Shown: one piece after another, positions 3,340 through 60,249 of the stretch
Position numbering within the stretch: the first letter of the stretch is position 1
Layout: every line of letters begins with the position of its first letter
Virus record (IMG/VR): IMGVR_UViG_3300032163_000012
Coordinates: 726 to 64,725 of that record
Reading direction: 5' to 3' (one strand)
Length of the DNA: 64,000 bases
Origin: a virus
Taxonomy: Duplodnaviria > Caudoviricetes
The notes under the pieces: model-generated
Seen by the model: only the letters and a program-made list of their open reading frames with translations
Told to the model about the DNA's origin: nothing
Database searches by the model: none
Made by a program: the position numbers and the translations under genes

Positions 3340-3683
3340 GCGAGGCCGAACTACTCAAGACGCTGGGCGAAACGAAGAAGGAAATGCAGTCGTCGCTGGC
3401 GAGCCTGATGGCGCTCCACGGAGCCCAGAAGGTGATGTTTGCGATGTCGCTGGTGAACGCGCCGAAGTTTATCTCGATGGCGAAAGAGGGCGGCATGTCC
3501 GATGAGTTGTCGTACATGCTCACTCAGCAGTTGCAGTTGATGCTGACCCAGTGGGGCCTGGCGGCCAAGTTTGACCATGAGGAAATGTACAAGCTGGCGA
3601 ATGGCATCCAGTCTCAAATGGCGTTGGTGGAGAACGATTTACAAGAGGCCGTGAACAGCGGCAATAACCCGAAGGAGAATTAG
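3336..3683 (+). CDS. hypothetical protein
   Basis: ATGA overlap, GGAG RBS. Confidence 0.65.
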   Translation: MSEAELLKTLGETKKEMQSSLASLMALHGAQKVMFAMSLVNAPKFISMAKEGGMSDELSYMLTQQLQLMLTQWGLAAKFDHEEMYKLANGIQSQMALVENDLQEAVNSGNNPKEN

Positions 3684-4787
3684 ATGGCGAACGAACAGAG
3701 AGAAACACGCTTGAAGGATCCTATGCAGGAAGTGCTGGACCCGCTCCAGTTCCACCAGGGCGGCGCAGATCTGGGTGCTGTCGTTCCGGCCGGGCAGTCC
3801 GGCATGGCGCGCGCCGGGAGCTTTATGACCGGCATGCAGGGCGACATCATCACGGCGCAGCGCGTCGGCGTGCCGCGCAACATGAGCCGGATCCTGGCCA
3901 ACATGAAGGCGCTGGCCACGGCCGCGGGCAAGGAGTACGTCTACGGCTGGGAAGTCAACGACCGGAAGAATAACCGGAAGGTGTGGATCGAGGGGCCGAC
4001 GATCACCCTCGCCAACGACCTCGCGCGCGAGTACATGAACTGCCAGGTGGATTGCCGCGTCATGGACGAGGGCAAGCATTGGGTGTTCTACGCGCGCTTC
4101 GTGGACCTGGAAACCGGATTCACGATGGTCCGGGCCTACCAGCAGCGCAAAGGCCAGGACACCGGCATGAAGGACGACCAGCGCAGCCTGGACATGGTGT
4201 TCCAGATCGGCCAGTCGAAGGCGATCCGCAATGTGGTTGTCAATGCGCTGCGCTCGCTTGTCAATTACGCCGTCGACGCGGCCAAGGGCTCGCTGCTGGA
4301 CAAGGTAGGCAAGAACCCGGAGGGCGCGCGCACGTGGATCAGGCAACAACTCAAGGACCTGGGCGTGGACATCAAGCGCGTCGAAGCGCTGTACGGCCGC
4401 ACGTCGGAACACTGGACGACGCCGGACATGGCGCGGATCTACACCGAATTGCAATCGATTACCGACGGCATGATGAATGCCGAGGACGTGTATCCGGTAC
4501 CGCAGAAGGAAGAAGCGGCCCGGAAGCGCGAGGACTCCAACCCGCTCGCCGGCAATCAAGGCCAAGGTGTGGGAACCGCTGGAAATGGTGCGTCGGCGGG
4601 CGGTGCGGAGGCTCCACCGATTGGCCAGCCGACCGGAACCGAGGGCTCCGAGCCAGCAGGCAAGCCGCCAGGTGACATGATGGATGACGCCGACGCTGCC
4701 CTGGGCGGAGGGACTAAAGCCGAGGCGCCTCCGGCGAAGAAAGTCGCGGGCAAGAAAAAAGCGAACCTGTTCGGCGGTGACGCATAG
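3684..4787 (+). CDS. putative single-strand annealing/recombination protein
   Basis: AAGGAG RBS; EGPTITLANDLARE...FVDLETG...SKAIRNVV core with disordered tail; function inferred from position between exonuclease and ATPase. Confidence 0.5.
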   Translation: MANEQRETRLKDPMQEVLDPLQFHQGGADLGAVVPAGQSGMARAGSFMTGMQGDIITAQRVGVPRNMSRILANMKALATAAGKEYVYGWEVNDRKNNRKVWIEGPTITLANDLAREYMNCQVDCRVMDEGKHWVFYARFVDLETGFTMVRAYQQRKGQDTGMKDDQRSLDMVFQIGQSKAIRNVVVNALRSLVNYAVDAAKGSLLDKVGKNPEGARTWIRQQLKDLGVDIKRVEALYGRTSEHWTTPDMARIYTELQSITDGMMNAEDVYPVPQKEEAARKREDSNPLAGNQGQGVGTAGNGASAGGAEAPPIGQPTGTEGSEPAGKPPGDMMDDADAALGGGTKAEAPPAKKVAGKKKANLFGGDA

Positions 4788-44468: not shown

Positions 44469-45854
44469 ATGGCCATCAACTTCGCAAGCGCCCGCCCGGG
44501 CATTGACCTGTTCAACGCCAATGTGGCGCGCGACGACGCGCAGCGCAGGCAGGAGGAGCACGACTTCATGCTCCGCAGGCAGTACGAGCAGGCGCAGGGC
44601 GCGGACAAGGGCATGCGCAACGCAATCGCGGCCTACTATGCCCAGAAACAACCAGCGGCCGTGGCTCCGGTACCGACGACCGCTTTCCATCCGACGCCTG
44701 CCATGGTGCCAAATCCCGCCGCCACGACGCCGGTGGTGTCGCCGGACCAGTCGATGAACCCTGCCGACAACCCGGACTACGGTGGGCCGACCAGCTCCGC
44801 GCCGATGCCGAACGCCGTCCCGCGCGCCGGTGTCGACGTGCCCGCGACCGTTGCCGCGCCTCCCATGCCTGCCGCCGCAGCGGCGCCAGCGGCAGCGCAG
44901 CCAGCGCCAGGAGCGCGCCAGGGCGGCGGCTTCGGCACGATGATGGGTGAACTGGCGAAGCAACCCGGTACCGGCGCATCGATGATGTCCCTGTTCGGCA
45001 CAGACCTTGCGAGCCAGCGCTCCGCTGGTGTCGAACGAGCAAAGCTACACCAAGAGGGACTAAAACTATTCATGGATGCGTCGAAAAACGACGATGTTGC
45101 GTCGATGCGCGCCATTGCTGCGAAATACGACTTCGGTATTCCGCCAGAGGTTCTGAACAATCGTGCCGTGATGGCTAAAATCGCTTCCATGGCCAAGGTG
45201 GCGAAAACGATCGGGATCACGGATGACGAGCGTGCCCTTGGATTCGCCAAGGGATACATGCACGCAGAAGCGGCTGGCGCAGACCCAAACACTTCGTTTC
45301 AGGCCGCAATCGCCGAAGCTCAAAAGACGCAACCAACCTTCAAAGCGGTGCACTGGGATCAGACACCCGAGGGCGAGGTAACTGGGTTCGACGCGCAGGG
45401 AAACGCAAAAGCTACAGGAGTGAAAGGGAAACAGCAGAAATGGCAGGTTTTCGGTCCTGGTGGCGCCGGCGAAAGACCAACCGCGACGGTCCAGAACCGC
45501 GACGACATGGCGAAGCGCCTGAAAGTCGCATACCCGGGCCTGGACGATGGCGTTGTGCAGCGCCTAGTGGTCAACCCGCGCGCCCAGATTACCGCACAGG
45601 ACATTATGCGCACCGAGGCGAGCATGCGCAAGCTCACCAACATGGGTCGCCCGCTCTACAAGACTGACGCCGAGGCGCACACCGCAGCCGTGGCGGCCGT
45701 TCGCGCCGCGCAGCGCGATGCTGGCGTGCTTGTCGGTGGGGAGGGCGCGCCTGGTGCTACAGCGCCTGGCCCTGCGGACAGCGGACCAGCCGGGCGCGTG
45801 CCGCCGCCGGTGCGCATGCGCTTTGACTCGAGTGGAAATGAGATCTCGCAATGA
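44469..45854 (+). CDS. putative ejection protein
   Basis: helical, Pro/Ala-rich; coupled to giant gene. Confidence 0.6.
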   Translation: MAINFASARPGIDLFNANVARDDAQRRQEEHDFMLRRQYEQAQGADKGMRNAIAAYYAQKQPAAVAPVPTTAFHPTPAMVPNPAATTPVVSPDQSMNPADNPDYGGPTSSAPMPNAVPRAGVDVPATVAAPPMPAAAAAPAAAQPAPGARQGGGFGTMMGELAKQPGTGASMMSLFGTDLASQRSAGVERAKLHQEGLKLFMDASKNDDVASMRAIAAKYDFGIPPEVLNNRAVMAKIASMAKVAKTIGITDDERALGFAKGYMHAEAAGADPNTSFQAAIAEAQKTQPTFKAVHWDQTPEGEVTGFDAQGNAKATGVKGKQQKWQVFGPGGAGERPTATVQNRDDMAKRLKVAYPGLDDGVVQRLVVNPRAQITAQDIMRTEASMRKLTNMGRPLYKTDAEAHTAAVAAVRAAQRDAGVLVGGEGAPGATAPGPADSGPAGRVPPPVRMRFDSSGNEISQ

Positions 45855-48800
45855 GCGTAGAGGCCGAGCTTAGCGACGGCACAATCCTCGAGTTCCCGGA
45901 CGGGACTGCGCCTGACGTCGTCCGCCGGACCGTAAAGCGCCAGCTTGGGCTGGCCGGGCCGGTCAAGCCAGCACCTGCGCCAGCACCGACAGCGGAGGAA
46001 TTGGCGGCCAGCAAGCCGGCGCGTAGCACTCTCACGCGCGGCGGGCAGCCTGTAATCCAGCCAGCCACCATGCCTGTCATCACTGAGCCTACCGGGTCAG
46101 TCATGGACTCGTTTGTGGCTAGGCCGCAGGAGCAGCTAGCGAACATAGCCCAGTCACTGCCACAAACGGAGATCGGAAATGAAACGACGCAACGCGAAGC
46201 GGTTAAAACCAATGACGGACAAATTGCGCTTGGCACTCAGGCGAGCGGCCCAAGGGTGGAAATTCCACGACGAAGGCGCGAAGCCACACCAGCCGAGTCT
46301 GTTGACGCCGCGGTAAAGCTGGCCGCCGACGTCGAGCGCGTGCGCAGCGCAAAGTATCTGACGCAGCCGACGATCGAGGAGGCGGCGCAGAGCAGCCTGA
46401 CGCGGCCGTTGACCGAAGCGGAGAAGCCGCGCGCGAGCTTGCGCTCACTGCCTGGCGACATCGCCACGGCCGCACGGCAAACGCCGAACGCTATCGCTGC
46501 CGGGGTTTCGTCCTTCCTGCAGGGCGGGGCACCGGAGGATGTATTCGGCTCTCCGGACTGGAAGAACGAGGCGATCAAGGAAGCGCGCTACAACGCGGAG
46601 CAGTCGTCCAAGAGCAAGGATTCGCAGGATAAGTACGTCGATTTCCTGGGGATCAAACTCAACCGGAACGATGTGCGCACGGCGCCACAAAATCTGGCAT
46701 TTTCCGTCGTTTCGATGGGCGCCTCCGTGCTCGCCGGGCTCGGCGGGTCTGTCGTTGGCGCGCTCGCCGGGCCAGTCGGATCGCGCGTTGTCGGAGCGGC
46801 CGCTGCTGGCGGCGCCGGCGGAGCAGCAGCCTACCGCATGGACACCAACAACTTCATGCGCGATTTGCGCCAGTACATGGACAAGGCTGCGCAGGGCCAG
46901 CTAGGGCGACCGTTGACGGACAAGGAGTTCATCGATGTCGCCACGGCGCCGTCGATGCACGACGCGGCGAAGCAGATTGGACTTGCCATACGGTCGAGCA
47001 AGAGCGGCCAGGCGCTGGCGCAGGAGCACGGACTGCACGAGGCCGGATGGGAGGCGATCGGCAACATGATTATGCTGGGCGCTGGCAAGTACATCATCAA
47101 AGAGGCGCTGAAAGGCGGGATCCTGAAACCGGCGCTCGGAGCCGTTGTAGGAACGGCCGGCGAAGTCGGAACGGAAATGCCCACCCAGATGGGCCAGCAC
47201 AACGTCGAAGTCGCCGCAGGCATGTCGCGCGAGGCGCCGCGGTCCTGGACAAGCGCATCCGACTGGTGGAAATCGTTCGAGGAAGTGGCCGGGCCAACCA
47301 TCCTGACCACCTTGGCAATGGGCGGCATGGCTGGCGGCGGCGCGGTGGCTGCGCGCGGCGTGCAGCGCATGGACGAGCGCCTGCGCCCAGGGGCGGCGAT
47401 CGGGCGCGCGCTCGAGGCCGATATCGCCGACCGCGGGATGCCGCCCGGAGCGGCAGACGCCGCAGCGCGCGCCTCCCTGAGCCTCCAGCCTGGCACGCCG
47501 GGCGACTTGTCCGCGGCGATGGCGCATCCGGGCACCTTGCAGGAATACATCGCCGAGCGCGACGCAAAGGCAGCAGAGGCCGCAGCCGTAGCTGCCGCAG
47601 CGCAGCCGCCCGTAGCGCCAGCGCCCGCCAGCGCGCCGGTAGCAGAGGCCCAGCCGCCGGCCGGAGCGCCTGTAGAGGCTCCTGCGGCACCGGCAGGAAC
47701 CCAGGCCGATGGCGAGCTGGGCACGTTTACGTGGATTGACGGGGAAGTGTCGCGCGGGACGTCTGAAGAAGGCGGAACCATACTCAAGCTCGGAGATCAG
47801 CGGATTCCAGTTACTCCGGAAGATGGGACGTGGGGGCCGGCGCCGGAGGGCGAGAACACGCCAGCGAAGCCGGTGAAGGTGGAAACGGCGCAGCACGTCG
47901 ACTTGGCCAGCCAGGGCATAGCCGCCGCGCCCACCGACGCGCAGAAGAAGGCTGGGACCTACCAGAAAGGCCACATCGACCTGCAGGGCCTGAAAATCAG
48001 CCTGGAGAACGCGAGGGGCAGCGAGCGCACCGGCATTGACGCCGACGGAGAGCGTTGGAGCACCGTCATGCCTGCCGCGTATGGATACATAAAACGCACA
48101 GAGGGCGCCGACGGCGATCAGGTCGACGTCTACGTGGGCGATGTCCCGGAAAGCCAGCAGGTGTGGATCGTTGACCAGATCGACCCTGCCACCGGAAAGT
48201 TCGATGAGCACAAGGTCATGCTCGGGTTCACGACCAAGGCGCACGCCGTTGCCACGTATCACACCGCCTTCAACGACAACAGCGGGCCGTCGCGCGTTGG
48301 TTCAGTAACCGGGATGTCGGTGCAGCAGTTCAAGGACGATTTCCTGAAAGGCCACGACCTAACCAAGCCGTTCGGGTATTTTGAAAAACGGCCAGCAGCA
48401 CCACAACCGAAGGAGGCACCAAATGCCCAAACAGTACGAAGCGATGCGGGACAAGTTCGCCAAGGGGGCGCCGAAGGACAGCCCGGCCTACAACCAGGCG
48501 CAGAGCAAGGCGGCGGCAATCTACAACAGCCGTCACCAAGCGGCACCAATGTCGGCCGCCCACCCGGAGGGGGCGCCGAAACAGTCACCGCGCAGCGGCC
48601 TGTCAACGAAGCTGGGCCGCCCGGCACCGGCGGGGATGCCAGCAATCAGCCAGTTTCACAGCCGCAAATAGGGAGAAACAGGTTCCAGCTCGATCGACAA
48701 CTCACAGCCTTGCGCCTCGACCACAAGAAGCTAGTGCAAGGTTTGCCGGTCGCCGAAGATATGGCGATGAACGACCGCGGTGCGAGCTTGACCCGGCTGC

Positions 48801-51800
48801 AGGCTAAGATCGACACGAACCAAGCGACGCAGAAAGAAATTCTCAGTGAGATAGCTGCGCTTGAGCCAGCCGAAGCAACAGCGCCAGAGGCAAAACCTAC
48901 CAAGGCCGCGCTGATCCCGACGCGCACGCCTAGCGGAGGTATCGAGTACGTCGTCCAGCCGCTGCGCGAGGGTGCTGCGCCGGAAACAAAGATCGTGCCC
49001 GATGAAGCGCCGGCCTTCGGCGAATCGAACAAGGTATTCACCAAGGACGCCGCGGACAAGGCGCGCGAGCTGCTGCGCAAGAAACTCGGCCAGGTGAGCA
49101 TGGGGCTCGACCCGGAGATCGCGCAGGCCGGCATCCAGCTTGCTGGGTATTACATCGAGGGCGGCGCGCGATCGTTCGCCTCCTACTCGGCCAAGATGCT
49201 CGCCGACCTTGGCGACATGGCCAAGCCGTACCTGAAATCGTGGTATGCCGCCGTGTTCTATCACCCAGGCATGAACACCGAAGGGATGGAGGAGCCTGGC
49301 AGCATCAAGGAAGCCGCGGCGCCGGCAGCGAACGTCTACAACGTGGGCGACAAGGTTATCTACCGGCCGATGGTTGGGCCGTCGCCGATGCACGCCACCA
49401 TCACGCGCATGACGCGCGACAACGACGGCACTGAGCGCATTGAACTGAGCACCGGCCACCGCGGCATCGAGGCGGCGAGCGACAGGCTTACCCGCGACGT
49501 TGCGGCGCCGGCTGAAACGAAATCGCCAATCGGTGAGACATTCCCGCTGAAATCTGAAACGAACGCGCCAATCGGTGAGACATTCCCGCTGAAATCTGAA
49601 ACGAACGCGCCAATCGGTGAGACATTCCCGCTGAAATCTGAAACGAACGCGCCTGCGGCTGAAATGATCGCCCCCACCGGTTCTACCAATGTACCAATGC
49701 AAAGTACAACGCCAGCGCCAGCCGGTGGCATGACGGTCGAGAAGCGCCAGCACACCAAGACCGGCGCCGACATCTGGGTGGTGAAGGGTGGCGCGCGCGT
49801 AAGCCGCAGCGACTACCTGACCATGAACGCCCGCGCGAAGCGCCTGGGCGGAGGCTGGTCGAACTACACCAAGGGGTTCAATTTCCACAGCGAGGCCAAG
49901 GCCAACGAGTTCGCCGGCATCAAGCCTACGGAGCAATCTGCTGCGCCTGAAATGTCAGAGTACGAAAGCCGTGCTGCTTGGGGTGATGCAGAAACCGGAC
50001 AGCCATTCACCGCGATCGCTTACCGAGCGCGCAATGGAATTGAAGAAATTCCAAAAGAGCAACGCGGCTTTTGGGCTGAGACTGAAGACGGGACTGCTGG
50101 ATACGGATACGGAAAATCAGGCATCACGTCAGTGTTTAAGGATACCGTCAGCGTATCGAACCCGCTGGTGGTCGATGACCAGATGGACGCAATCATTGAA
50201 TTGTTTGGAAAGGACAGCAAAGAGCGTGAGGGCTATTTTGATGCCAAGGACAAGGGCGATGATGCAGATCGGTATGCAGACAAAGTTTTAGCTCCGGCAG
50301 CGCGCGCCGCAGGCTACGACGCGATCATCTACCGGCAAGACACAAATCTTTACGGCGCACCGACTAGATCAATTCACGTTCTTGGACAGGAGACACAAAA
50401 TGCCAAACCCGACTCCGCAGCCATGCGCCTTGCCGAGCGCATCAAGACCGAGGTAATCGTCGGCCAAGATAAGATCAACAACGTCGATTTGATGCGCATG
50501 GCGCGCGAGGAATTCGGCGAGTCATTCAGCCCGAAGGAGGCATACGATGCCGTCGAGGCCGGGATGAACCTGTATCTCCGGGAAACGCCGTCACTCAGCG
50601 ATCCGACCAGAGCAGCAACCGCGCAGCAGGCGCGCATCGTGGTGGCGAAGCTGCGCACGGCGACCGACTTCCTGCCAACGCAGAACGTGCGCGACAAGGA
50701 ACAGGAGGAATACCAGCAATTCAGCACTCCGCCGGCCATCGCCTGGCTCGTGAACTGGGTGGCGCAGGTGCGGCGCGGAGAGACTGCGCTGGAACCGTCC
50801 GGCGGACTTGGCGGACTCGCCGTGTTTGCCGAGGGCGCCGGCGCAAAGGTCGTCATCAACGAACTGTCCGCGCGCCGCGGCGCAGTGCTGAGAGATTTGT
50901 TCCCGGATGCGCGCATCTTCACCGAGGACGCCAGCCAACTGAACAACGTGCTTCCGGACGACGTGAAGCCGACCGTGGTCATCATGAACCCGCCATTCTC
51001 GGCTACGGCCGGCAGGATCGAGGGTCGGCGCTCGAACAAGGAAGGGCTCGCGCACGTCGACCAGGCGCTGAAACGGCTGGAACCGGGCGGGCGTCTCGTC
51101 CTCTTGATGGGCGAGGGCATGGCGCTGGACCTACCTGGGCAGCGTGAATGGTGGGATAAGACGCGCGCGGAGTACAACGTCCGCGCAAATATCGGCATCG
51201 AAGGCAGCGCCTACATGAAATATGGCACGACTTTCGGTGTCCAACTCATTGTCATCGACAAGACCGGGCCAACAACGGCCGAGCCTGTGGTGGCAAAAGA
51301 TGCGGTGCTGGGCGACGTGCCGGCACTGCTGGAGGATCTCCGTGATAGACCTGAAAGCGGTACAACGAGTGAACAACCACCCGCTCAACCGGGCAGCGGG
51401 GAAGTGGCTGCCGGCGCGGTTACGCAACAAGGATCAAATCAACCTGCTGGCGTTGGCGCAGTGGGGGCTGGAGAACGGCCTGGAAATCAAGCCACCAAGC
51501 CCGGAGCAGCCGACACTGGACGAAGTGGAACAGAAACTCCAGATGTTGGCGCGCGGCCAGCCGTTGCAGGCGCTGCAGTTCATCCAGGAAGTGGACGGGG
51601 AGAAAGTGCTGGAACCGTCAGATCTGGAAAGCCAACCGGACCGGAAGGAAGCGGCGAGCTTGCTGCTTCAGACTCTGTACAGCAACATGGTGGCGAGTCG
51701 GGCCTGACAGTCACATCAACCACTGCGGCTAAGAACGAAAGCGATCTCAGCGATTCAGTCTACGAGAACTACACGCCGAAGCGGTTGAAGATCGAGGGAG

Positions 51801-54800
51801 CCAAGCCGCACCCTGGCAAGCTCGTCGAGTCAGCCGCCATGTCAGCGGTAGACCCGCCTGCGCCGACCTACACGCCGAACCTGCCGCGCGAGGTCATCAC
51901 CAAAGGCATGCTGTCGATCGCGCAACTCGAGGCGGTGGTGTACGCCGGGCAGGCGCACTCCCAGATGCTTCCCGGCACAGAAGGCAAGCAGCAACGCCGT
52001 GGGTTCTTCATCGGGGACGGGACCGGCGTCGGAAAGGGCCGCGAGATCGGCGGCATCATCCTGGACAACATGCGCCAAGGCAGGAAGAAGGCTGTATGGA
52101 TCTCGGAGAAGCAGGGCCTGCACCTGGACGCGCAACGTGACTTCGAAGGTGTCGGCGGAAACCCGGCCACAATTTTCAGGCAGGGGGCCACATCGGCGAA
52201 GAATGCCATCACTGCCAAATCAGGCATTTTGTTCAGTACCTACTCGATGCTGCGCAGCGGAGAGAAGAAGCAGGCGACCGACAAACAGGAAAAGGGAAAG
52301 TCGCGCATCGATCAGTTGGTTGATTGGCTTGGGGAGGGCTTCGACGGTGTGCTGGTGTTCGATGAGGCGCACAACATGGCGAATGCCGTGCAGCAGCGTG
52401 GCGCGCGCGGCGTTAAGGCTCCGTCAAAAATGGCGATCGCGGCTCTCAACCTGCAAGCGCGTCTGCCACAGGCGCGCGTGGTGTACGTGTCCGCCACCGG
52501 CGCGACCGAAGTGCAGAACCTTGCCTACGCGGCACGCCTTGGCCTGTGGGGCGAGGGCACTCCATTCGCCGGGCGGGACGAATTCCTGAACCAGATCGAC
52601 GCAGGCGGCGTGGCGGTGATGGAACTAGTTGCCCAGAACATGAAGGCGCTTGGCGTCTATATGTCGCGTTCTCTGTCATACGACGGCGTGAGTTACGACA
52701 GGCTGGAGCACAAACTTGAGCCAATTCAGCGCGAACTGTACAACAAGCTCGCTGATACGTGGCAACTGGTCCTGAGAAGGGTAAACCAGGCGCTAGGCGA
52801 CACCGGGCAGGATAAAAGCGGAAACGCCAAAGGGGCGGCGATGTCGCGCTTTTGGGGCGCACACCAGCGCTTTTTCAACCAGATCATCACGGCAATCCAG
52901 ATGCCGACAATCATCGCCAACGCCAAGGCAGCGATCGAGGCTGGCGATGCCGTTGTCATGCAACTGGTCAACACCAACGAGGCCGAGCAGGAGCGCCAGG
53001 CGGCGCGCGCGGAGATCGAGGGTGAGGAACTGGAAGAACTTGAGTTCGGGCCGATGGATAGCCTGATCGAGTTCGTCACCGCCGGCTTCCCGGTGCAGCA
53101 GTACGTGGAAGCGGACGACGGCAATGGCAACGTCATTTCAGTGCCGGCCACAGACGCGGCCGGAAATCCGGTCATCAACAGGGATGCTGTGGCGTCGCGC
53201 GATGCGCTGATCGCTGAATTGCAATCCATGAAGCGCACGAGCGCGATCCCGGGCAACCCGATCGATCTGGTCATTGAGGAGTTCGGGCCGGAGGCGGTGG
53301 CGGAGATCACAGGGCGCAAGCGCCGTTTCGTCCGTATCAAGGGCGAATCCGGCGAGTACGTCATGACCGAGCAGAAGCGCGGGGCCGCCGCGGCACAGAA
53401 CGACGCCAAGGCTTTCATGGAGGACAAGAAGCGCGTCCTGATCTTCTCGGACGCTGGCGGTACTGGCTTTTCGTTCCAGTCTGACCTTGGCACCAAGAAC
53501 CAGCGTTTGCGCCACCACTACCTCGTTCAGCCCGGCTGGCGCGCTGACAAGGCCGTTCAGGGGCTCGGGCGCACTCATCGAACCAACGAGGCGAACCAGC
53601 CGAAATACCTGCTTCCAACCACCGATTTGAAGGCGCAGAAGCGGTTTATCTCGTCCGTCGCTCGCCGACTTGACCAGCTCGGGGCGCTCACGAAGGGGCA
53701 ACGCCAAACCGGCTCTCAGGGCCTGTTTTCGGCGAAGGACAATCTGGAGTCGCAGTATTCTACGGCCGCCGTTACGACGCTATTCGAGGACATGCACGGT
53801 GGGCGCACACCGCTGGACTTTACTGATGTCACCGCCCAAATGGGGCTCGACATGATCGACCCGCGCACCGGGGCGCTTTCCAGGGACAAAATCCCTACCG
53901 TGCCGCGTTTCCTGAACCGCCTACTATCGATGCGCATGGAAACCCAGGATCAGGTGTTCGAGGAGTTCATCCGGCGCATGGAGGAAGCGGTAGAAAACGC
54001 CATTGCCGCCGGGCACTACAACGACGGCATGGAAACCGTGCGCGCGCAGAAGGTGGCGATCACGCGCGTCGAGGTTGTGCACACCGACGAGCGCAGCGGG
54101 GCGGAAACAAAATACTACGACCTCGAGCTGACGCACCCAAATATCATCAACAAGTTCGACGCGGTACAGGACAAGATCGCAGCCGAGGAGGAATCCGCGC
54201 CTCCGGGCGTGACGCGGGACCACTTCTTCTACCGCAACGAGAAATCGGGCAAGGTATTCGCCATCATCGAGCGCGGGCAGCGCGTAAATGCGCAGGGGCA
54301 TCCGTTCACCAGAGGCAGCCGATGGGGTGTCACCGGACTGCCGCGCTACGTCGACAACGTAGAAGGCGTAAAGAGCGGCTCAACCGGGTACGGCGAGCGC
54401 GAGATCACCTACACGAAACTGACCGAGGCTCAGGCACAGGAAGCGTGGAAAAAGGAACTGGCGAAGGCGCCGCCGACCTACACCGACCACTTACACATGA
54501 TCGCAGGGGCCATCCTGCCAGTGTGGAACCGGATCACCGGGGACAATGCGCGCGTGGTGCGCACGCAGACCGAGGACGGAACCAGATTGATTGGGCGCGT
54601 CGTTCCGATTGGTCAGTTGAAGGACACGCTGCGCAATCTTGGTGTCGGCTCGACCGTTGCAAAACTGCCAGCCGCAGATATTTTCAAGCGCGTAATGGCT
54701 GGCGAGCGCGGCCTGCTTGCCGATGGCAGTACGCTCGTGACCGTGAACCTTCTTGGATCAAAGAGGGTGGAATTGAAGGCTCCGCACGGCATGACGTCCG

Positions 54801-57800
54801 CCAAGTCGCGCCAGTTGACAGAGCAGGGAGCGCAGATCGAGCGGCACCAGTGGACTGAGCGCGCGTTTATTCCGAACGGCGACGTTCTGGAGCGCATCCT
54901 GGAAACGACGCCGATCGTGGAGCTTGGCGCGGAAGGCGGAGAGAAGTACAGCCTCGGCACCGGCGAGCGCCCGGCCGCCAACGTGGCCTCCGAGGTCCGC
55001 CGCATCGCCGAGGAAATGTTCCCGAAGGCGAATCTGGCGATGGTCGATCGCTTGTTCGGCGAAGGCCCGGCCGTGGTGCGCTCCGGGGCGCCCAGCGAGG
55101 CGCGCATCGAGGCAGCCGGCAAGTACAACACCGGGCGCCAGTTGATGACCGTGGCGATGAACTACGAGGACCCGACCAAGACGATCCGGCACGAGGGCGT
55201 GCACGCGCTCTACGACATGGGCATGTTCAAGGAAGCCGAGTGGACCATCCTGCAGCGCGAGTCGACCAATCGCTGGATGAAGGAGCACAACGTACCAGAC
55301 AACGAGGAAGGGATAGCCAAGGCATTCCAGTTCTACCGCGCCGGCGGCAAGTTCGCTGGGCCGGTGGGGCGCGCGTTTGACCGCATCAGGGATTTCCTAC
55401 AGCGGATTGGAAACGCCCTACGCGGCCTGGGCTACCAGAACGTGGACGACATTTTCAAGCGCATCGAATCAGGCGAGGTCGGCGCCGCGGTGCGCCCCGG
55501 CAGCATGGCCGACTTGGCCAGCATGACGCTTGAGAGCTACGCCAAGATGCCGCTGTCGTACCGCATGGCCGTGCGCGACGACCTGAATGCGGTGCTGGAG
55601 AAGTTCTCTGCTGCTGGCGGGGTGGCCCAAAAAAGCGCTGCAGCGATGTTCAATCAAGAACAGATCGACGCCGCGAGCCAAACAAAATGGAAAAGCAGGG
55701 AGAAGCTAGTTGACATGCCAATAGCCGATTTTCTTCGGCTGGCAGCGCAAGGGGAAAGCGAGTTCAAGCGCAAGCGTGTCCAAGAGGTTCTAGACCGCGG
55801 GGATAAGTTCAGTGATTTGCCGTACCTGTTGGTGAAAACAGAAGGTGGCAACGTGGTTGTAATGGGGCAGGGGGAGTCGCATGAAGGGCGGCACCGGGCT
55901 AGAGCGCTACAGAAACTCGGGTACACCACTATACCTGTAGTGATAAAAGGCGACATTCGGTGGTCTGAGCAAACCGATTCGAAGCTGTTCGATTATAAAG
56001 CTCAGTGGCCCAATAAACTTGTTGGCCAGAGTGGTGAAAGTGTGCCGTTTCCAGTAATGCGTGAGGATGCGGCTGCAAATTATTCTAAACATCCAGACGT
56101 TCGCTATAGCCTGGGCAGCGATCTGCCTGACAACATCGCCGTGATCCAGAAGCAGACGGGTAATGACGTGTTGCCAACCACCCGTTTCGCGGCGAACCCG
56201 CGCAATGCGTTTTTCGGCGAGCCTGTCCTGCGTGAATTGCAGAAGTTCGCCACTCACATTGAAACCCAGATAGCGCGCACCGCCAAGAGCTTTTCTGACG
56301 AATATCACGGCATCAGAAAAAAACTGAACAAGAGCGAGCGAGACACGCTGGATGATGTCCTTTGGGTAGGCGAGGCGGACGAGGTTGAATTCACCGAGCA
56401 ACAACTGCGCGAGGACATCGGCTGGACTGATCCAAAGCTCATCAAGGCGTACAAGGATTTCCGCTCTCTGGTGGAGAAGATGGGGCGCTTCGTCGATATG
56501 CACCGCCGGTCGATGAAGTTCGAGTACACGGAGAGAAAGAAAAAGGTGCTTGTCCGTATGGCCAATCTGAGGGTGATGGATGTGGCCGAGTTCCGCAGCC
56601 TCTATGGCCGGCGCCTGCGCCTGCGCGGCAAGGTGCGCGACGGAGACGTAGACCCAGCCACCCTTGCGGCACTGGACGCCATCGAGGAACAGATGCAAAT
56701 CATCCGTGAGGAAACGGACGAGTACCAGGATCTGGTGAAAGAAATCGACCGCATTGATGGCATCCTGGCCGAAACGTCGATCCGCACCAAGGTTGGCTAC
56801 ATGCCGCACAAGTTTTTCGGCACCTGGGCCACCTATCGCTTGGTCGAGGAGCCGGTTCTGGACAAAGAGGGCAAGCCGACGATGGACCCGGGCACCGGCG
56901 AGCCGGTCACTGAGACGGTGCACAAGCTCGTTGCTGGCGAGCACGGGTTCTACCCGAACCAGAAAGCGGCAGTCACGGCGGCCGAGCGCGCCTCGGCGCT
57001 GGCTCCAGACGACCAGTTTGAAGTGCGCGCGGTGCAATTCAAATTCCCGAATGCGGCAGCCACCACCCTGACAGATGCCTCGTTCTGGACATTCCTCGGG
57101 AAGTTTAGCGCGGCAACCAGCCTGCACGGGCAGGATCTGCGCGACGCGACAGAGGGCATCGCCCGCCGCCGCTTCCGCCGCCGCATTGCCGGGTTCACCC
57201 AAAAGCGCACCGGCGTCGAGGGGTTCAGCAAGGCCATGGACAGGGTGATGCTCTCCCACATCGGCGAGGTCACCCGGTACGTGTTCCTGGACAAGTTCAA
57301 GTACCGCGCCATCAGCGACATGGAAAAGCTCAAGATGTCGCCGTTCCAGTCGCAAGACACGAAGCACCCAACGCTATCGAAGATGGTTGAGGCATACATT
57401 CGTGACATGAACGGCCAGAAGCAGCCGATGGAGAAGTCGGTAGACGAGTCGCTTGACTGGATCGCATCCAGGCCGTGGGCGAAGGCTGCCTTTGTCGGGC
57501 TGCCGGCGTCCGCCGCGGGCGCCTCGCTCATGTTCGGCATCTCCACCAATCCGCTGGTCGCCGCGGCCGTGTCCGGCTACGTCGGATGGCGCCTGTACTC
57601 GTCGATCTCGCGCGATACTGAGTTCAAATCAAGGGCGCTTACCCAGGATCTACTTGGCGACATGGCGCACGCGAAGCTGGGAGCGTTCTTCAACCTCGCG
57701 TCCGGCATCGTCAATTTGACCCAGACGCCAATCAATACCCTGCCGGTGCTGGGTCCGAAGTACACCATGATTGGGATGCAGAAATTGGCCGGCGCGCTCT

Positions 57801-59161
57801 GGTCTAGAATCAATAGTCGCGGCGGCGTGATTCGCGTGAACAGCGATTACCGTCTGCTGGAGCGCTCTGACACGCTCTCGAACGACACATACAGCGAAGC
57901 CAGCCTACTCTACTTGGCGCAGCATCGGCTTGCGCGCTGGTCCCTTGCCTTCTTCCGTACCACGGAGGCGTTTAACCGGGCGGTGACGTTCCTCGGTGCA
58001 TACCACCGGGCTAAGGACAAAGGCAAACTGCACGGCCCGGCGTTCGCCGAAGCCGAAGCCACGATGAAGTTCACGCAACACCCATACGGCAATGCGGACA
58101 ACGCCGAGATCCTGCGCAACGTCTACCTGCGGGTGCCGTTCCAGTTCAAGAAGTACATGGCGCAGCAGATCGCCTACGAGTTCGAGCTTGGCCGAAAATT
58201 CACCACAGGGAAATCAATCCATGATTCTCAAGTCGAAATACCGCGCGAAGCCCTATTGTGGAATCTCATGTCGGTATTCCTCGTCGCTGGCACGCTTGGG
58301 CTTCCGTTCATTGCGCTACTCGCCTCTATCATCAAGGGCGTCAGCGATTGGGATCCTCTCGATTGGATCAAGAGAAAAGCGCTTGAGGCACAGGCTTTGG
58401 GCAAGCTGGCAGCCGGCGCGGCCACTGTTGTCGCTCGCGGGCTCCCTGCTTGGGCTATTGGCGAGGACATGTCCGCCCGCGCCGGCATGGGCGAGCAGTT
58501 CACGCCGCAGCAGGCTACCGACCTACTCGGGCCGTGGTGGAGCACTATGGACAAAGCCCGCCAGCTCGGGGAGCTACAAGCCGGATTCGTTGACCAACTA
58601 GCGAACGTGAGTCCTGGCGCCGGCAAGCCGCTGAAGGCGATAGAGGCGATGGCGAACGGCATGCCGATCGCCATGTCCGTTACCGATACCAAGAGGTTCT
58701 ACGAGGCATTCGCCGACAACAAGATCGACTGGGTGAGCCCGTGGAAGAACCGGACGGACTTTGATGAGAACCAACTCTCAAAGGCCGATGTGGCGCGCAT
58801 GGCGTTCGGTTCCACTCCGACCAATGTTGCTATGGCACGCAGCGAGGTACAGGGGCTGGCCAAGGAAACCGCCTTGGAAAAGAAGAAAACACAGCTTTAC
58901 CTGAACAAGATTATCTCGGCGAACCGCGACTACGGGAGCGACGAGAAGAAGGACAAAGACGGGAAAACTAAACTGGATTATGCTCTCGACAAGATTGCGA
59001 ACGACGCTGAAAAGGCTGGCGTTTCTCTGTCTGAGCCAACGATCAAGAAAGCGCTCGCTGACGCACAGACGCCGCGGCTGCAGCGTGCTATCAAGGGGGC
59101 GCCAAACAAAATGCGCGGAGAGGCATCGTCGCGTTCTGAGTCGTTGCTGCAACAACAATAA
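45851..59161 (+). CDS. giant DarB-like polyvalent virion protein (4436 aa)
   Basis: InPase-like (YGYIKRTEGADGDQVDVY), N6-MTase (LEPSGG, NPPF), strawberry-notch SF2 helicase (GDGTGVGKGR, DEAH, SAT, QGLGRTHR), HEGVH metallopeptidase, EGRHR ParB-like module. Confidence 0.9.
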   Translation: MSVEAELSDGTILEFPDGTAPDVVRRTVKRQLGLAGPVKPAPAPAPTAEELAASKPARSTLTRGGQPVIQPATMPVITEPTGSVMDSFVARPQEQLANIAQSLPQTEIGNETTQREAVKTNDGQIALGTQASGPRVEIPRRRREATPAESVDAAVKLAADVERVRSAKYLTQPTIEEAAQSSLTRPLTEAEKPRASLRSLPGDIATAARQTPNAIAAGVSSFLQGGAPEDVFGSPDWKNEAIKEARYNAEQSSKSKDSQDKYVDFLGIKLNRNDVRTAPQNLAFSVVSMGASVLAGLGGSVVGALAGPVGSRVVGAAAAGGAGGAAAYRMDTNNFMRDLRQYMDKAAQGQLGRPLTDKEFIDVATAPSMHDAAKQIGLAIRSSKSGQALAQEHGLHEAGWEAIGNMIMLGAGKYIIKEALKGGILKPALGAVVGTAGEVGTEMPTQMGQHNVEVAAGMSREAPRSWTSASDWWKSFEEVAGPTILTTLAMGGMAGGGAVAARGVQRMDERLRPGAAIGRALEADIADRGMPPGAADAAARASLSLQPGTPGDLSAAMAHPGTLQEYIAERDAKAAEAAAVAAAAQPPVAPAPASAPVAEAQPPAGAPVEAPAAPAGTQADGELGTFTWIDGEVSRGTSEEGGTILKLGDQRIPVTPEDGTWGPAPEGENTPAKPVKVETAQHVDLASQGIAAAPTDAQKKAGTYQKGHIDLQGLKISLENARGSERTGIDADGERWSTVMPAAYGYIKRTEGADGDQVDVYVGDVPESQQVWIVDQIDPATGKFDEHKVMLGFTTKAHAVATYHTAFNDNSGPSRVGSVTGMSVQQFKDDFLKGHDLTKPFGYFEKRPAAPQPKEAPNAQTVRSDAGQVRQGGAEGQPGLQPGAEQGGGNLQQPSPSGTNVGRPPGGGAETVTAQRPVNEAGPPGTGGDASNQPVSQPQIGRNRFQLDRQLTALRLDHKKLVQGLPVAEDMAMNDRGASLTRLQAKIDTNQATQKEILSEIAALEPAEATAPEAKPTKAALIPTRTPSGGIEYVVQPLREGAAPETKIVPDEAPAFGESNKVFTKDAADKARELLRKKLGQVSMGLDPEIAQAGIQLAGYYIEGGARSFASYSAKMLADLGDMAKPYLKSWYAAVFYHPGMNTEGMEEPGSIKEAAAPAANVYNVGDKVIYRPMVGPSPMHATITRMTRDNDGTERIELSTGHRGIEAASDRLTRDVAAPAETKSPIGETFPLKSETNAPIGETFPLKSETNAPIGETFPLKSETNAPAAEMIAPTGSTNVPMQSTTPAPAGGMTVEKRQHTKTGADIWVVKGGARVSRSDYLTMNARAKRLGGGWSNYTKGFNFHSEAKANEFAGIKPTEQSAAPEMSEYESRAAWGDAETGQPFTAIAYRARNGIEEIPKEQRGFWAETEDGTAGYGYGKSGITSVFKDTVSVSNPLVVDDQMDAIIELFGKDSKEREGYFDAKDKGDDADRYADKVLAPAARAAGYDAIIYRQDTNLYGAPTRSIHVLGQETQNAKPDSAAMRLAERIKTEVIVGQDKINNVDLMRMAREEFGESFSPKEAYDAVEAGMNLYLRETPSLSDPTRAATAQQARIVVAKLRTATDFLPTQNVRDKEQEEYQQFSTPPAIAWLVNWVAQVRRGETALEPSGGLGGLAVFAEGAGAKVVINELSARRGAVLRDLFPDARIFTEDASQLNNVLPDDVKPTVVIMNPPFSATAGRIEGRRSNKEGLAHVDQALKRLEPGGRLVLLMGEGMALDLPGQREWWDKTRAEYNVRANIGIEGSAYMKYGTTFGVQLIVIDKTGPTTAEPVVAKDAVLGDVPALLEDLRDRPESGTTSEQPPAQPGSGEVAAGAVTQQGSNQPAGVGAVGAGERPGNQATKPGAADTGRSGTETPDVGARPAVAGAAVHPGSGRGESAGTVRSGKPTGPEGSGELAASDSVQQHGGESGLTVTSTTAAKNESDLSDSVYENYTPKRLKIEGAKPHPGKLVESAAMSAVDPPAPTYTPNLPREVITKGMLSIAQLEAVVYAGQAHSQMLPGTEGKQQRRGFFIGDGTGVGKGREIGGIILDNMRQGRKKAVWISEKQGLHLDAQRDFEGVGGNPATIFRQGATSAKNAITAKSGILFSTYSMLRSGEKKQATDKQEKGKSRIDQLVDWLGEGFDGVLVFDEAHNMANAVQQRGARGVKAPSKMAIAALNLQARLPQARVVYVSATGATEVQNLAYAARLGLWGEGTPFAGRDEFLNQIDAGGVAVMELVAQNMKALGVYMSRSLSYDGVSYDRLEHKLEPIQRELYNKLADTWQLVLRRVNQALGDTGQDKSGNAKGAAMSRFWGAHQRFFNQIITAIQMPTIIANAKAAIEAGDAVVMQLVNTNEAEQERQAARAEIEGEELEELEFGPMDSLIEFVTAGFPVQQYVEADDGNGNVISVPATDAAGNPVINRDAVASRDALIAELQSMKRTSAIPGNPIDLVIEEFGPEAVAEITGRKRRFVRIKGESGEYVMTEQKRGAAAAQNDAKAFMEDKKRVLIFSDAGGTGFSFQSDLGTKNQRLRHHYLVQPGWRADKAVQGLGRTHRTNEANQPKYLLPTTDLKAQKRFISSVARRLDQLGALTKGQRQTGSQGLFSAKDNLESQYSTAAVTTLFEDMHGGRTPLDFTDVTAQMGLDMIDPRTGALSRDKIPTVPRFLNRLLSMRMETQDQVFEEFIRRMEEAVENAIAAGHYNDGMETVRAQKVAITRVEVVHTDERSGAETKYYDLELTHPNIINKFDAVQDKIAAEEESAPPGVTRDHFFYRNEKSGKVFAIIERGQRVNAQGHPFTRGSRWGVTGLPRYVDNVEGVKSGSTGYGEREITYTKLTEAQAQEAWKKELAKAPPTYTDHLHMIAGAILPVWNRITGDNARVVRTQTEDGTRLIGRVVPIGQLKDTLRNLGVGSTVAKLPAADIFKRVMAGERGLLADGSTLVTVNLLGSKRVELKAPHGMTSAKSRQLTEQGAQIERHQWTERAFIPNGDVLERILETTPIVELGAEGGEKYSLGTGERPAANVASEVRRIAEEMFPKANLAMVDRLFGEGPAVVRSGAPSEARIEAAGKYNTGRQLMTVAMNYEDPTKTIRHEGVHALYDMGMFKEAEWTILQRESTNRWMKEHNVPDNEEGIAKAFQFYRAGGKFAGPVGRAFDRIRDFLQRIGNALRGLGYQNVDDIFKRIESGEVGAAVRPGSMADLASMTLESYAKMPLSYRMAVRDDLNAVLEKFSAAGGVAQKSAAAMFNQEQIDAASQTKWKSREKLVDMPIADFLRLAAQGESEFKRKRVQEVLDRGDKFSDLPYLLVKTEGGNVVVMGQGESHEGRHRARALQKLGYTTIPVVIKGDIRWSEQTDSKLFDYKAQWPNKLVGQSGESVPFPVMREDAAANYSKHPDVRYSLGSDLPDNIAVIQKQTGNDVLPTTRFAANPRNAFFGEPVLRELQKFATHIETQIARTAKSFSDEYHGIRKKLNKSERDTLDDVLWVGEADEVEFTEQQLREDIGWTDPKLIKAYKDFRSLVEKMGRFVDMHRRSMKFEYTERKKKVLVRMANLRVMDVAEFRSLYGRRLRLRGKVRDGDVDPATLAALDAIEEQMQIIREETDEYQDLVKEIDRIDGILAETSIRTKVGYMPHKFFGTWATYRLVEEPVLDKEGKPTMDPGTGEPVTETVHKLVAGEHGFYPNQKAAVTAAERASALAPDDQFEVRAVQFKFPNAAATTLTDASFWTFLGKFSAATSLHGQDLRDATEGIARRRFRRRIAGFTQKRTGVEGFSKAMDRVMLSHIGEVTRYVFLDKFKYRAISDMEKLKMSPFQSQDTKHPTLSKMVEAYIRDMNGQKQPMEKSVDESLDWIASRPWAKAAFVGLPASAAGASLMFGISTNPLVAAAVSGYVGWRLYSSISRDTEFKSRALTQDLLGDMAHAKLGAFFNLASGIVNLTQTPINTLPVLGPKYTMIGMQKLAGALWSRINSRGGVIRVNSDYRLLERSDTLSNDTYSEASLLYLAQHRLARWSLAFFRTTEAFNRAVTFLGAYHRAKDKGKLHGPAFAEAEATMKFTQHPYGNADNAEILRNVYLRVPFQFKKYMAQQIAYEFELGRKFTTGKSIHDSQVEIPREALLWNLMSVFLVAGTLGLPFIALLASIIKGVSDWDPLDWIKRKALEAQALGKLAAGAATVVARGLPAWAIGEDMSARAGMGEQFTPQQATDLLGPWWSTMDKARQLGELQAGFVDQLANVSPGAGKPLKAIEAMANGMPIAMSVTDTKRFYEAFADNKIDWVSPWKNRTDFDENQLSKADVARMAFGSTPTNVAMARSEVQGLAKETALEKKKTQLYLNKIISANRDYGSDEKKDKDGKTKLDYALDKIANDAEKAGVSLSEPTIKKALADAQTPRLQRAIKGAPNKMRGEASSRSESLLQQQ
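48423..48671 (+). CDS. candidate nested gene 1 (82 aa, +1 frame inside giant gene)
   Basis: AAGGAGG RBS 6 nt before ATG; G/C-ending codons shift to this frame. Confidence 0.6.
   Translation: MPKQYEAMRDKFAKGAPKDSPAYNQAQSKAAAIYNSRHQAAPMSAAHPEGAPKQSPRSGLSTKLGRPAPAGMPAISQFHSRK
49524..49653 (+). repeat. 42-bp tandem repeat x3 in giant gene
   Basis: CGCCAATCGGTGAGACATTCCCGCTGAAATCTGAAACGAACG, three exact copies. Confidence 0.95.
51342..51707 (+). CDS. candidate nested gene 2 (121 aa, +1 frame inside giant gene)
   Basis: GGAGG RBS 6 nt before GTG; amphipathic helical product; codon bias in this frame. Confidence 0.6.
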   Translation: MIDLKAVQRVNNHPLNRAAGKWLPARLRNKDQINLLALAQWGLENGLEIKPPSPEQPTLDEVEQKLQMLARGQPLQALQFIQEVDGEKVLEPSDLESQPDRKEAASLLLQTLYSNMVASRA

Positions 59162-59461: not shown

Positions 59462-59797
59462 ATGAACGATCGTCGCCAGCCGTTTCAAGTTGACGAGGCG
59501 AAGTTTTCAACCCAGAAGGGGGTGACGTACATCCTCCTGTTTATCTTCGCGTCTGTCACGGCAAACGTACTCTCCGGGCAGGACCAGGCCGAGCGGTCCA
59601 CAATTCTGCAGACGGTAATCAACCTGACGTTGCTCGCCGTCGGCTACTGGCTGGGATCGAGCAAGGCGGCCACCGACACCAATGCGGCGATGGGCAGGAT
59701 CGCGCAAGGCTCCGCGCCGGCCGCCGCAGCAGCCGTGGCAGCGGCCACCGGGATGCCAACCCCTCCGGCGCCACCGGACGAGGAACCAAAACCGTGA
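59462..59797 (+). CDS. holin candidate (2 TM)
   Basis: two hydrophobic segments ending VGYWLGSS; coupled to endolysin. Confidence 0.65.
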   Translation: MNDRRQPFQVDEAKFSTQKGVTYILLFIFASVTANVLSGQDQAERSTILQTVINLTLLAVGYWLGSSKAATDTNAAMGRIAQGSAPAAAAAVAAATGMPTPPAPPDEEPKP

Positions 59798-60249
59798 GGA
59801 TCTCAGACCACTTCACGCTGGAGGAGCTTTCCGTCACCGAGCACCGTGACCTGATCGACGACAACCTGGCTTGGGCGCAGAAGCATATCGACAACCTGGA
59901 TCGCCTGGTCGTGATCGCGCTGGAGCCCGTGCGCGCGCTATTGGGTGTTCCAATGCACGTAAATTCCGGCGTGCGCTGCCCGGAACTGAACAAGATCGTG
60001 GGCGGATCGCCAACGTCGGCGCACCCGGAGGGGCGCGCGTGCGACTTCACTGCTGCCGGATACGGGCCGCCCTTGGAGATCTGCCGGGTGATCTACTCGT
60101 CCGGTATCCGGTTCGACCAACTCATCTGGGAGGGGCGGTGGGTGCACATCGGGATCGCCAGGGCCGCCGAGGCGCCGCGGTTCCAGGTGCTCACGGCGCA
60201 TTTCAGGAAAGGCCAGCCGACCACCTACACGCCAGGCTTGCCGCCTTGA
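59794..60249 (+). CDS. endolysin, peptidase M15A family
   Basis: HFTLEEL, SGVRCPELNKIVGGSPTSAHPEGRACD, WVHIG. Confidence 0.9.
   Translation: MRISDHFTLEELSVTEHRDLIDDNLAWAQKHIDNLDRLVVIALEPVRALLGVPMHVNSGVRCPELNKIVGGSPTSAHPEGRACDFTAAGYGPPLEICRVIYSSGIRFDQLIWEGRWVHIGIARAAEAPRFQVLTAHFRKGQPTTYTPGLPP

Follow-up and report, generated by a model that had tools for sequence, protein, structure and literature searches.

In phage lambda, the small gene Rz1 lies wholly inside the larger gene Rz, reads the +1 frame of that strand and has a start of its own; in different phages, such spanin pairs occur embedded, overlapped or separated (PMC6139136). The Rz1 product, a short proline-rich lipoprotein, binds Rz and works in lysis. 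Viral overprinting provides a second likeness through same-strand pairs of an ordered and a disordered product (PMC8227390, PMC3744397, bioRxiv 10.1101/229690): classically, the late arrival is a novel protein that emerges within an existing gene, and the codon-usage method takes the frame with genome-typical composition as the older of the two (PMC3744397). Here, we analyze a candidate nested gene at positions 51342-51707 of a 64,000-nucleotide (nt) stretch of viral DNA (hereafter the window), which makes up most of a 64,725-base virus record, IMG/VR IMGVR_UViG_3300032163_000012. The candidate sits within a giant gene that resembles a third described system, the polyvalent proteins of phages and conjugative plasmids, among them the DarB-like methylase-SWI2/SNF2 dyad, in which an adenine methyltransferase with an NPPF motif is fused to a strawberry-notch-like ATPase (PMC5512222).

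We conclude from sequence comparison and structure prediction that 51342-51707 is very likely a genuine same-strand overlapping gene, and we hold with slightly more assurance still that it is a selected protein-coding frame. It lies wholly inside 45851-59161, in the +1 frame relative to the giant open reading frame (ORF), and falls exactly in the linker that leads from the N6-adenine methyltransferase to the strawberry-notch helicase. The first-pass annotation of this DNA had proposed a nested gene here, started by a GTG behind GGAGG and ending just before the helicase, and these landmarks stand: GGAGG at 51331-51335, the spacer ATCTCC at 51336-51341, GTG at 51342-51344 and the stop TGA at 51705-51707, with the AAA_34 domain of the helicase beginning, by Pfam, at 51806. 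Translation yields the 121 residues quoted there, VIDLKAVQRVNNHPLNRAAGKWL...SLLLQTLYSNMVASRA, followed by the stop. A 161-codon version from ATG 51222 was rejected, as its first 40 codons are the conserved methyltransferase end read out of frame and the family alignment begins at 51342. The features at the junction are as follows:

45851..59161, + strand: host gene, phage polyvalent protein ORF, 4,436 codons, main frame
50336..51340, + strand: C-terminal part of the N6-adenine methyltransferase, main frame; the domain ends ...ALLEDLR
51331..51335, + strand: Shine-Dalgarno (SD)-like GGAGG, 6 nt 5' of the nested GTG; the main frame encodes Leu-Glu-Asp here
51341..51745, + strand: main-frame linker rich in Gly/Ala/Pro/Ser/Thr, from methyltransferase to helicase; predicted disordered; G+C content at third codon positions (GC3) in the overlap 0.36
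51342..51707, + strand: nested gene, +1 frame, GTG start, 121 codons, TGA stop; predicted acidic all-alpha product of an unnamed family
51806..52747, + strand: AAA_34, strawberry-notch NTPase, amino acids (aa) 1986-2299 of the host protein, main frame (Pfam E 1.7e-117)

By its sequence relatives, the nested product belongs to an unnamed, previously unannotated family of small proteins. A phmmer search with the 121-aa peptide against 1.84 billion representative proteins returned 54 matches at E<=1e-3, eight of them at E<=1e-10, the best being a protein of 121 aa with 51% identity (E 6e-29). All 54 are 87-188 aa long and nearly all align end to end; no long protein carrying the nested peptide in frame is among them. 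The 41-row family alignment displays hydrophobic periodicity and conserved P14, N16, A19, L23, L38, W41 and A104, and the family is acidic, with a median isoelectric point (pI) of 4.73 and a pI <5.5 in 36 of 41 members. From this 41-row alignment, AlphaFold2 predicts an ordered protein of seven helices, with a mean predicted local distance difference test score (pLDDT) of 94.9, a predicted template modelling score (pTM) of 0.88 and 111 of 121 residues at a pLDDT of at least 90, versus a mean pLDDT of 52.6 and a pTM of 0.11, without secondary structure, for the main-frame linker modelled from 6 rows. The earlier view that the nested frame is the more protein-like of the two agrees with composition, L/I/V/M/F/W/Y making up 31% of the nested peptide versus 9% of the main-frame linker, which consists to 77% of G/A/P/S/T/Q/E. 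Conservation in methyltransferase-helicase fusions, which the first-pass annotation had named as a check, was found as well: beyond the 54 significant relatives, the +1 position is kept in nine independent methyltransferase-helicase genes. Neither predicted disorder nor lack of conservation, two of the grounds on which that annotation would have given up the nested gene, holds for this frame.

At each of these nine independent overlapped loci (9/9), the family occupies the +1 frame of an ORF without interruption between the NPPF motif and the helicase Walker A motif, and the flanking domains of the nine are only 40-86% identical. Since the main frame is kept open and in register in 9/9 loci, it presumably has to be read through, and as the nested frame is conserved at the protein level, we conclude that the stretch is very likely a case of true dual coding. 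The overlapped loci are:

The window: this virus record
L010 (=L011): metagenome contig
L003, L007 (=L008) and L009: viral contigs
L005: Rugamonas genome
L024: a further genome
L001, 6642-6995: conjugative plasmid pTHIMO01 of Thioflavicoccus mobilis
L020, 2136-2480: conjugative plasmid MEALZ_p of Methylotuvimicrobium alcaliphilum 20Z

Five further copies (L004, L012, L013, L014 and L018) are free-standing, with no methyltransferase or helicase nearby. In four of them (L004, L012, L014 and L018) the ORF is intact and starts with ATG at the aligned position, where L013 reads AGG; the L013 ORF opens from an upstream ATG (174 aa). At one more locus, L006, the host gene is degraded and the nested ORF is still intact. 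A strawberry-notch NTPase was not found in the L004 and L006 genomes and gave a marginal match in the L018 genome, all of which are possibly incomplete. The nested family spans phages, integrated elements and conjugative plasmids. The two plasmid copies, L020 and L001, form a shorter and more divergent branch (114 and 117 aa; profile E 1.6e-5 and 8e-13), and in the gene table of MEALZ_p, a table with known gaps, the giant gene WP_014133156.1 is the sole entry at the nested site. Three relatives of the giant gene (L002, L021 and L022) do without the nested family. In L002, an IMG/VR contig, the linker at 3600-4500 is longer, about 300 residues, is in frame and resembles ordinary rather than low-complexity protein, and its GC3 of 0.44-0.56 is below that of its flanks; from its sequence, this insert seems to be another way of bridging this junction.

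Loci were searched with a 9-row subset of the 41-row family alignment. A profile of the family recovered both plasmid copies, unlike a tblastn search with the single peptide, which gave no match at E<=1e-3 in the plasmid and phage collections. A DNA search against phage records found no match, and neither did scans of viral contigs with the nested peptide, P0005 or the L005 copy; the L009 copy matched only itself. The nested family is rare in the genomes searched: matches to the family profile occurred in 3/401, 1/401 and 2/401 genomes at the levels of order, class and phylum, counts that include the centre genome each time and, at order level, an antisense-like junk frame (G394).

The substitution pattern indicates which of the two frames is constrained. 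Between the window and L010, 119 of 363 aligned bases are different (67% nucleotide identity) and there is no insertion or deletion (indel); the differences fall at nested codon positions 1/2/3 in 33/30/56 of 121 cases (chi-square p 5e-4), so that across the overlap the main-frame third position is the least variable and the first the most. The same pair follows the normal main-frame pattern in the flanking methyltransferase and helicase, at 0.13/0.11/0.40 and 0.14/0.11/0.51 for positions 1/2/3. For this pair, the one close overlapped pair on which the two-frame contrast is built, the nested frame has a non-synonymous rate (dN) of 0.30, a synonymous rate (dS) of 1.08 and a dN/dS of 0.28, versus a dN of 0.455, a dS of 0.355 and a dN/dS of 1.28 in the main frame, and changes that replace a main-frame residue but leave the nested protein unaltered are over-represented 1.6-1.7 fold. 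Free-standing pairs (L004, L012-L014) give a dN/dS of 0.28-0.44. Judged from these substitutions, the nested frame is under purifying selection.

Base composition points the same way. Over 51342-51707, the G+C content at codon positions 1/2/3 (GC1/2/3) is 0.78/0.69/0.36 in the main frame, versus 0.64/0.47/0.74 for the whole gene, and 0.69/0.36/0.77, an ordinary coding pattern, in the nested frame. The high main-frame GC1 follows from the Gly/Ala/Pro-rich peptide; the low GC3 is not explained that way. A drop in main-frame GC3 to 0.36-0.48 in the overlap, versus 0.68-0.78 gene-wide, recurs in 6/6 loci tested, whereas a G/A/P-rich stretch elsewhere in the giant gene (47351-47650) has a GC3 of 0.81, and in an Azospirillum plasmid relative that lacks the nested ORF the linker has one of 0.86-0.88. 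Selection on the nested frame, by setting the sequence, would account for the 'wrong' main-frame codon usage (GC3 0.36 versus 0.74) and so for the local codon-usage collapse inside the giant gene. Among the alternative-frame open stretches of at least 85 codons in this gene, 2 of 25 have a coding-like G+C pattern, and 51342-51707 is one of the two.

It might be asked whether the +1 frame is open by chance, in a G+C-rich Gly/Ala/Pro linker without +1 stops, and whether gene callers have filled the databases with shadow ORFs of this kind. When the window's linker codons were resampled from the gene's own usage, the +1 frame was open in 22% of trials, and in 12-87% across loci including five relatives, which makes an open +1 frame, taken alone, weak evidence; the ten database relatives looked up are also unnamed or 'hypothetical' singletons on short metagenome contigs. 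A chance frame would nonetheless have to account for five free-standing copies outside giant genes, four of them intact from the aligned ATG and diverging at the low dN/dS given above, for a mean pLDDT of 94.9, for a nested third position that is the most variable in the overlapped pair and for a main-frame GC3 collapse that appears only where the family is present. Homology, predicted fold and substitution pattern together go far beyond chance, and we regard a chance origin as extremely improbable. Hardly more credible, and still very improbable, is a relic, in which a former in-frame domain or separate gene, following a change of frame, now serves as linker only and the nested frame is no longer translated. 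The genome-typical nested GC1/2/3 (0.69/0.36/0.77, versus 0.64/0.47/0.74 for the gene) is what an ancestral frame would be expected to show, and the degraded locus L006 retains an intact nested ORF, yet the arrangement is kept in nine loci whose flanks have diverged to 40-86% identity, with a start codon in each, and no indel has entered 363 nt of supposed linker between the window and L010. Unlike in a relic, the dN/dS of 0.28 in the nested versus 1.28 in the main frame between overlapped copies suggests that selection continued after the overlap arose.

The remaining rival, and the main alternative to independent initiation, concerns not whether the frame is read but how. A +1 shift near the methyltransferase end could yield a trans-frame product, a truncated methyltransferase with the nested domain as its tail, instead of or besides the free protein. 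P0024, a database protein of 183 aa, does join a methyltransferase end (KYGTTF...VIDKNGPTTG) in frame to the nested family, and the SD-like element just 5' of the junction is reminiscent of the prfB +1 frameshift site. The in-frame junction occurs, however, in one of the 26 match sequences read (of 54), and P0024 may reflect a frameshifted or broken host gene or an indel introduced in assembly. In CTC CGT GAT AGA, inspection of 51320-51350 by eye, without a dedicated frameshift-site search, reveals no slippery or hungry-codon motif. The aligned first codon is ATG or GTG in 9/9 overlapped loci (shifted one codon downstream in L009), and this residue is also where free-standing copies begin. A GGAG-like purine run precedes the aligned start in the nine overlapped loci, the weakest being AGAAGG in L020, and no promoter-like or terminator-like site was found in 50900-51900. 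As the start column is conserved, the first residue is shared with free-standing copies and no promoter or terminator intervenes, independent initiation at GGAGG-N6-GTG is the likely mode on this sequence evidence, and frameshifting is improbable.

Several observations weigh against the reading of 51342-51707 as a nested gene or limit its reach. Besides the ease with which resampled linkers stay open, GGAG is present in L021, which lacks the nested gene, where it arises from main-frame Leu-Glu, so that the motif is permissive and not specific evidence. The two-frame dN/dS contrast comes from one close overlapped pair; more distant overlapped pairs are saturated, and in them, when each frame is aligned separately, the low-complexity main frame reaches an identity similar to or above that of the nested frame (main versus nested 0.46 versus 0.345 for window-L009, 0.40 versus 0.32 for window-L003 and 0.33 versus 0.31 for window-L005). 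The fold comparison sets an alignment of 6 rows for the main-frame linker against one of 41 rows for the nested frame. Nested and host identities correlate weakly and not significantly (Spearman 0.26 and 0.31, p 0.12 and 0.07), and a tree of 59 family members leaves 24 of 56 inner branches unresolved, so that no direction of origin can be read from it. Embedded and free-standing copies are interspersed in this tree, with three changes between the two states, and 79 of 500 shuffles gave a number as low.

With the nested gene as the favoured reading, we picture the giant messenger RNA (mRNA) as being read in two frames across 51342-51707. The main frame would yield a disordered Gly/Ala/Pro-rich spacer of which no more is asked than flexibility and freedom from stops, to keep methyltransferase and strawberry-notch helicase joined in a single chain. 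Ribosomes starting separately at GGAGG-N6-GTG would read the +1 frame and produce an acidic protein of 121 residues and seven helices, its reading frame closing 40 nt short of the conserved helicase block, and purifying selection on this nested frame would dictate the sequence of the stretch. The simplest history, we infer, is that a pre-existing small mobile-element gene was engulfed through the fusion of its neighbours, whereby its G+C-rich third positions would have become the first positions of a stop-poor frame rich in Gly/Ala/Pro/Arg. The genome-typical composition and ordered fold of the nested frame suggest, by the codon-usage argument (PMC3744397), that it is the older of the two.

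Set beside the systems with which we began, the locus comes closest in architecture to lambda Rz/Rz1, and it shares with spanins a family that has both embedded and free-standing copies. It differs from Rz/Rz1 in that the embedded product is predicted to be ordered (pLDDT 94.9) and the enclosing frame disordered, in that the host is a 4,436-residue anti-restriction-type protein and in that free-standing nested copies turn up in genomes that yielded no host-type gene. It would also turn the usual overprinting picture around: the enclosed frame appears ordered and selected and the enclosing frame a disordered by-product, the likely newcomer being a multidomain protein's spacer, superimposed on a small gene that is older and also circulates alone. 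As to the giant gene, its sequence fits the polyvalent-protein class with a DarB-like methylase-helicase dyad. The NPPF motif lies at about 50987-50998, with N218, P219, P220 and F221 invariant in alignment A3 (motif name and adenine-methyltransferase assignment from Iyer et al. 2017, PMC5512222, section 14), and the phage-type inorganic pyrophosphatase (InPase), the giant size and the occurrence in phages and conjugative plasmids are shared with polyvalent proteins as well (PMC5512222). The class as described does not include linkers that carry a second reading frame between domains: the text of that paper, supplementary files excluded, has 0 occurrences of 'overlapping', 'frameshift' and 'linker'; literature searches for overlap in polyvalent or strawberry-notch methylase genes returned nothing relevant.

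For function, our tentative best guess is that the nested protein may be directed at the host, as an anti-defence or takeover factor, and be produced alongside the DarB-like anti-restriction dyad. An anti-defence role is favoured because the protein is small and acidic, occurs in mobile elements and travels with the anti-restriction dyad; a dedicated subunit of the dyad is less likely because free-standing copies occur in genomes in which no strawberry-notch helicase was found. When the nested protein was co-folded with the end of the methyltransferase and the N-terminal part of the helicase (alignments A3, A4 and A1), the score was 0.30 and the mark 0.32, a result that says nothing either way about binding. 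Acidity is the only property shared with DNA mimics of the ArdA/Ocr type, Acr and similar proteins. Counting against any specific assignment are the searches themselves: over the 41 members, Pfam returned single-member chance matches only (best E 0.013), and PHROGs, NCBIfam and PADLOC no match; with the nested model, Foldseek reached a best E of 0.53 on PDB and 0.39 on BFVD, VIA-align over 48,161 chains a best Z of 3.9 with none usable, and the ESM Atlas held no usable match. To the same side belong the neighbours of the free-standing copies, which include a P4-type primase (DUF3987), Eco57I-type methylases, a non-specific endonuclease, DUF5681 and an XRE regulator and have no common theme.

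The same giant gene harbours a second candidate of this kind, in the low-complexity linker that follows the InPase domain. Further features of the gene are:

48423-48671, + strand: second +1-frame ORF (stop-to-stop 48363-48668), 82 aa, MPKQYEAMRDKFAKGAPKDSPAYNQAQSKAAAIYNSRH...
aa 696-829 of the host protein, + strand: InPase (PF18823), phage/polyvalent-type inorganic pyrophosphatase (Pfam E 2e-47)
aa 2469-2728 of the host protein, + strand: Helicase_C_4, C-terminal domain of the strawberry-notch NTPase (Pfam E 2.8e-81)

For 48423-48671, nested GC1/2/3 is 0.61/0.54/0.78 and main-frame GC3 is 0.54. Its relatives comprise 72 small proteins at E<=1e-3 among 73 candidates, the best with 73% identity (E 1.6e-28), and its product has no Pfam or PHROG match. 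Viral loci encoding such relatives number 53, of which 18 are embedded in an open frame of at least 300 aa and 35 are not, counts in which a few loci are ambiguous (spanning frames of 133-196 aa) and one copy is truncated; the giant frame runs one base behind in 17 of the 18 embedded relatives, as it does in the window.

Two embedded families in one gene suggest that the arrangement may be general. It is quite possible, although we would not yet put it more strongly, that the linkers of giant polyvalent genes in phages and conjugative elements are often still-functional small genes and not spacers by origin, swallowed by the out-of-register fusion of neighbouring ORFs, which would give a flexible peptide with few stops and much Gly/Ala/Pro. 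If so, giant ORFs would grow by engulfing genes without losing them, a rule of growth for polyvalent proteins that the second family suggests, and one mRNA would deliver a multidomain protein along with hidden small proteins, probably anti-defence factors. New small effectors that accompany anti-restriction machinery could then be sought in polyvalent linkers. Because annotation pipelines do not allow long overlaps on one strand, a conserved family with a confidently predicted fold stays invisible in public records.

Downstream of the giant gene lies an endolysin at 59794-60249. The giant protein also contains a near-perfect triple tandem repeat (PIGETFPLKSETNA x3), encoded at 49300-49500 of the window and corresponding to main-frame aa ~1150-1215.

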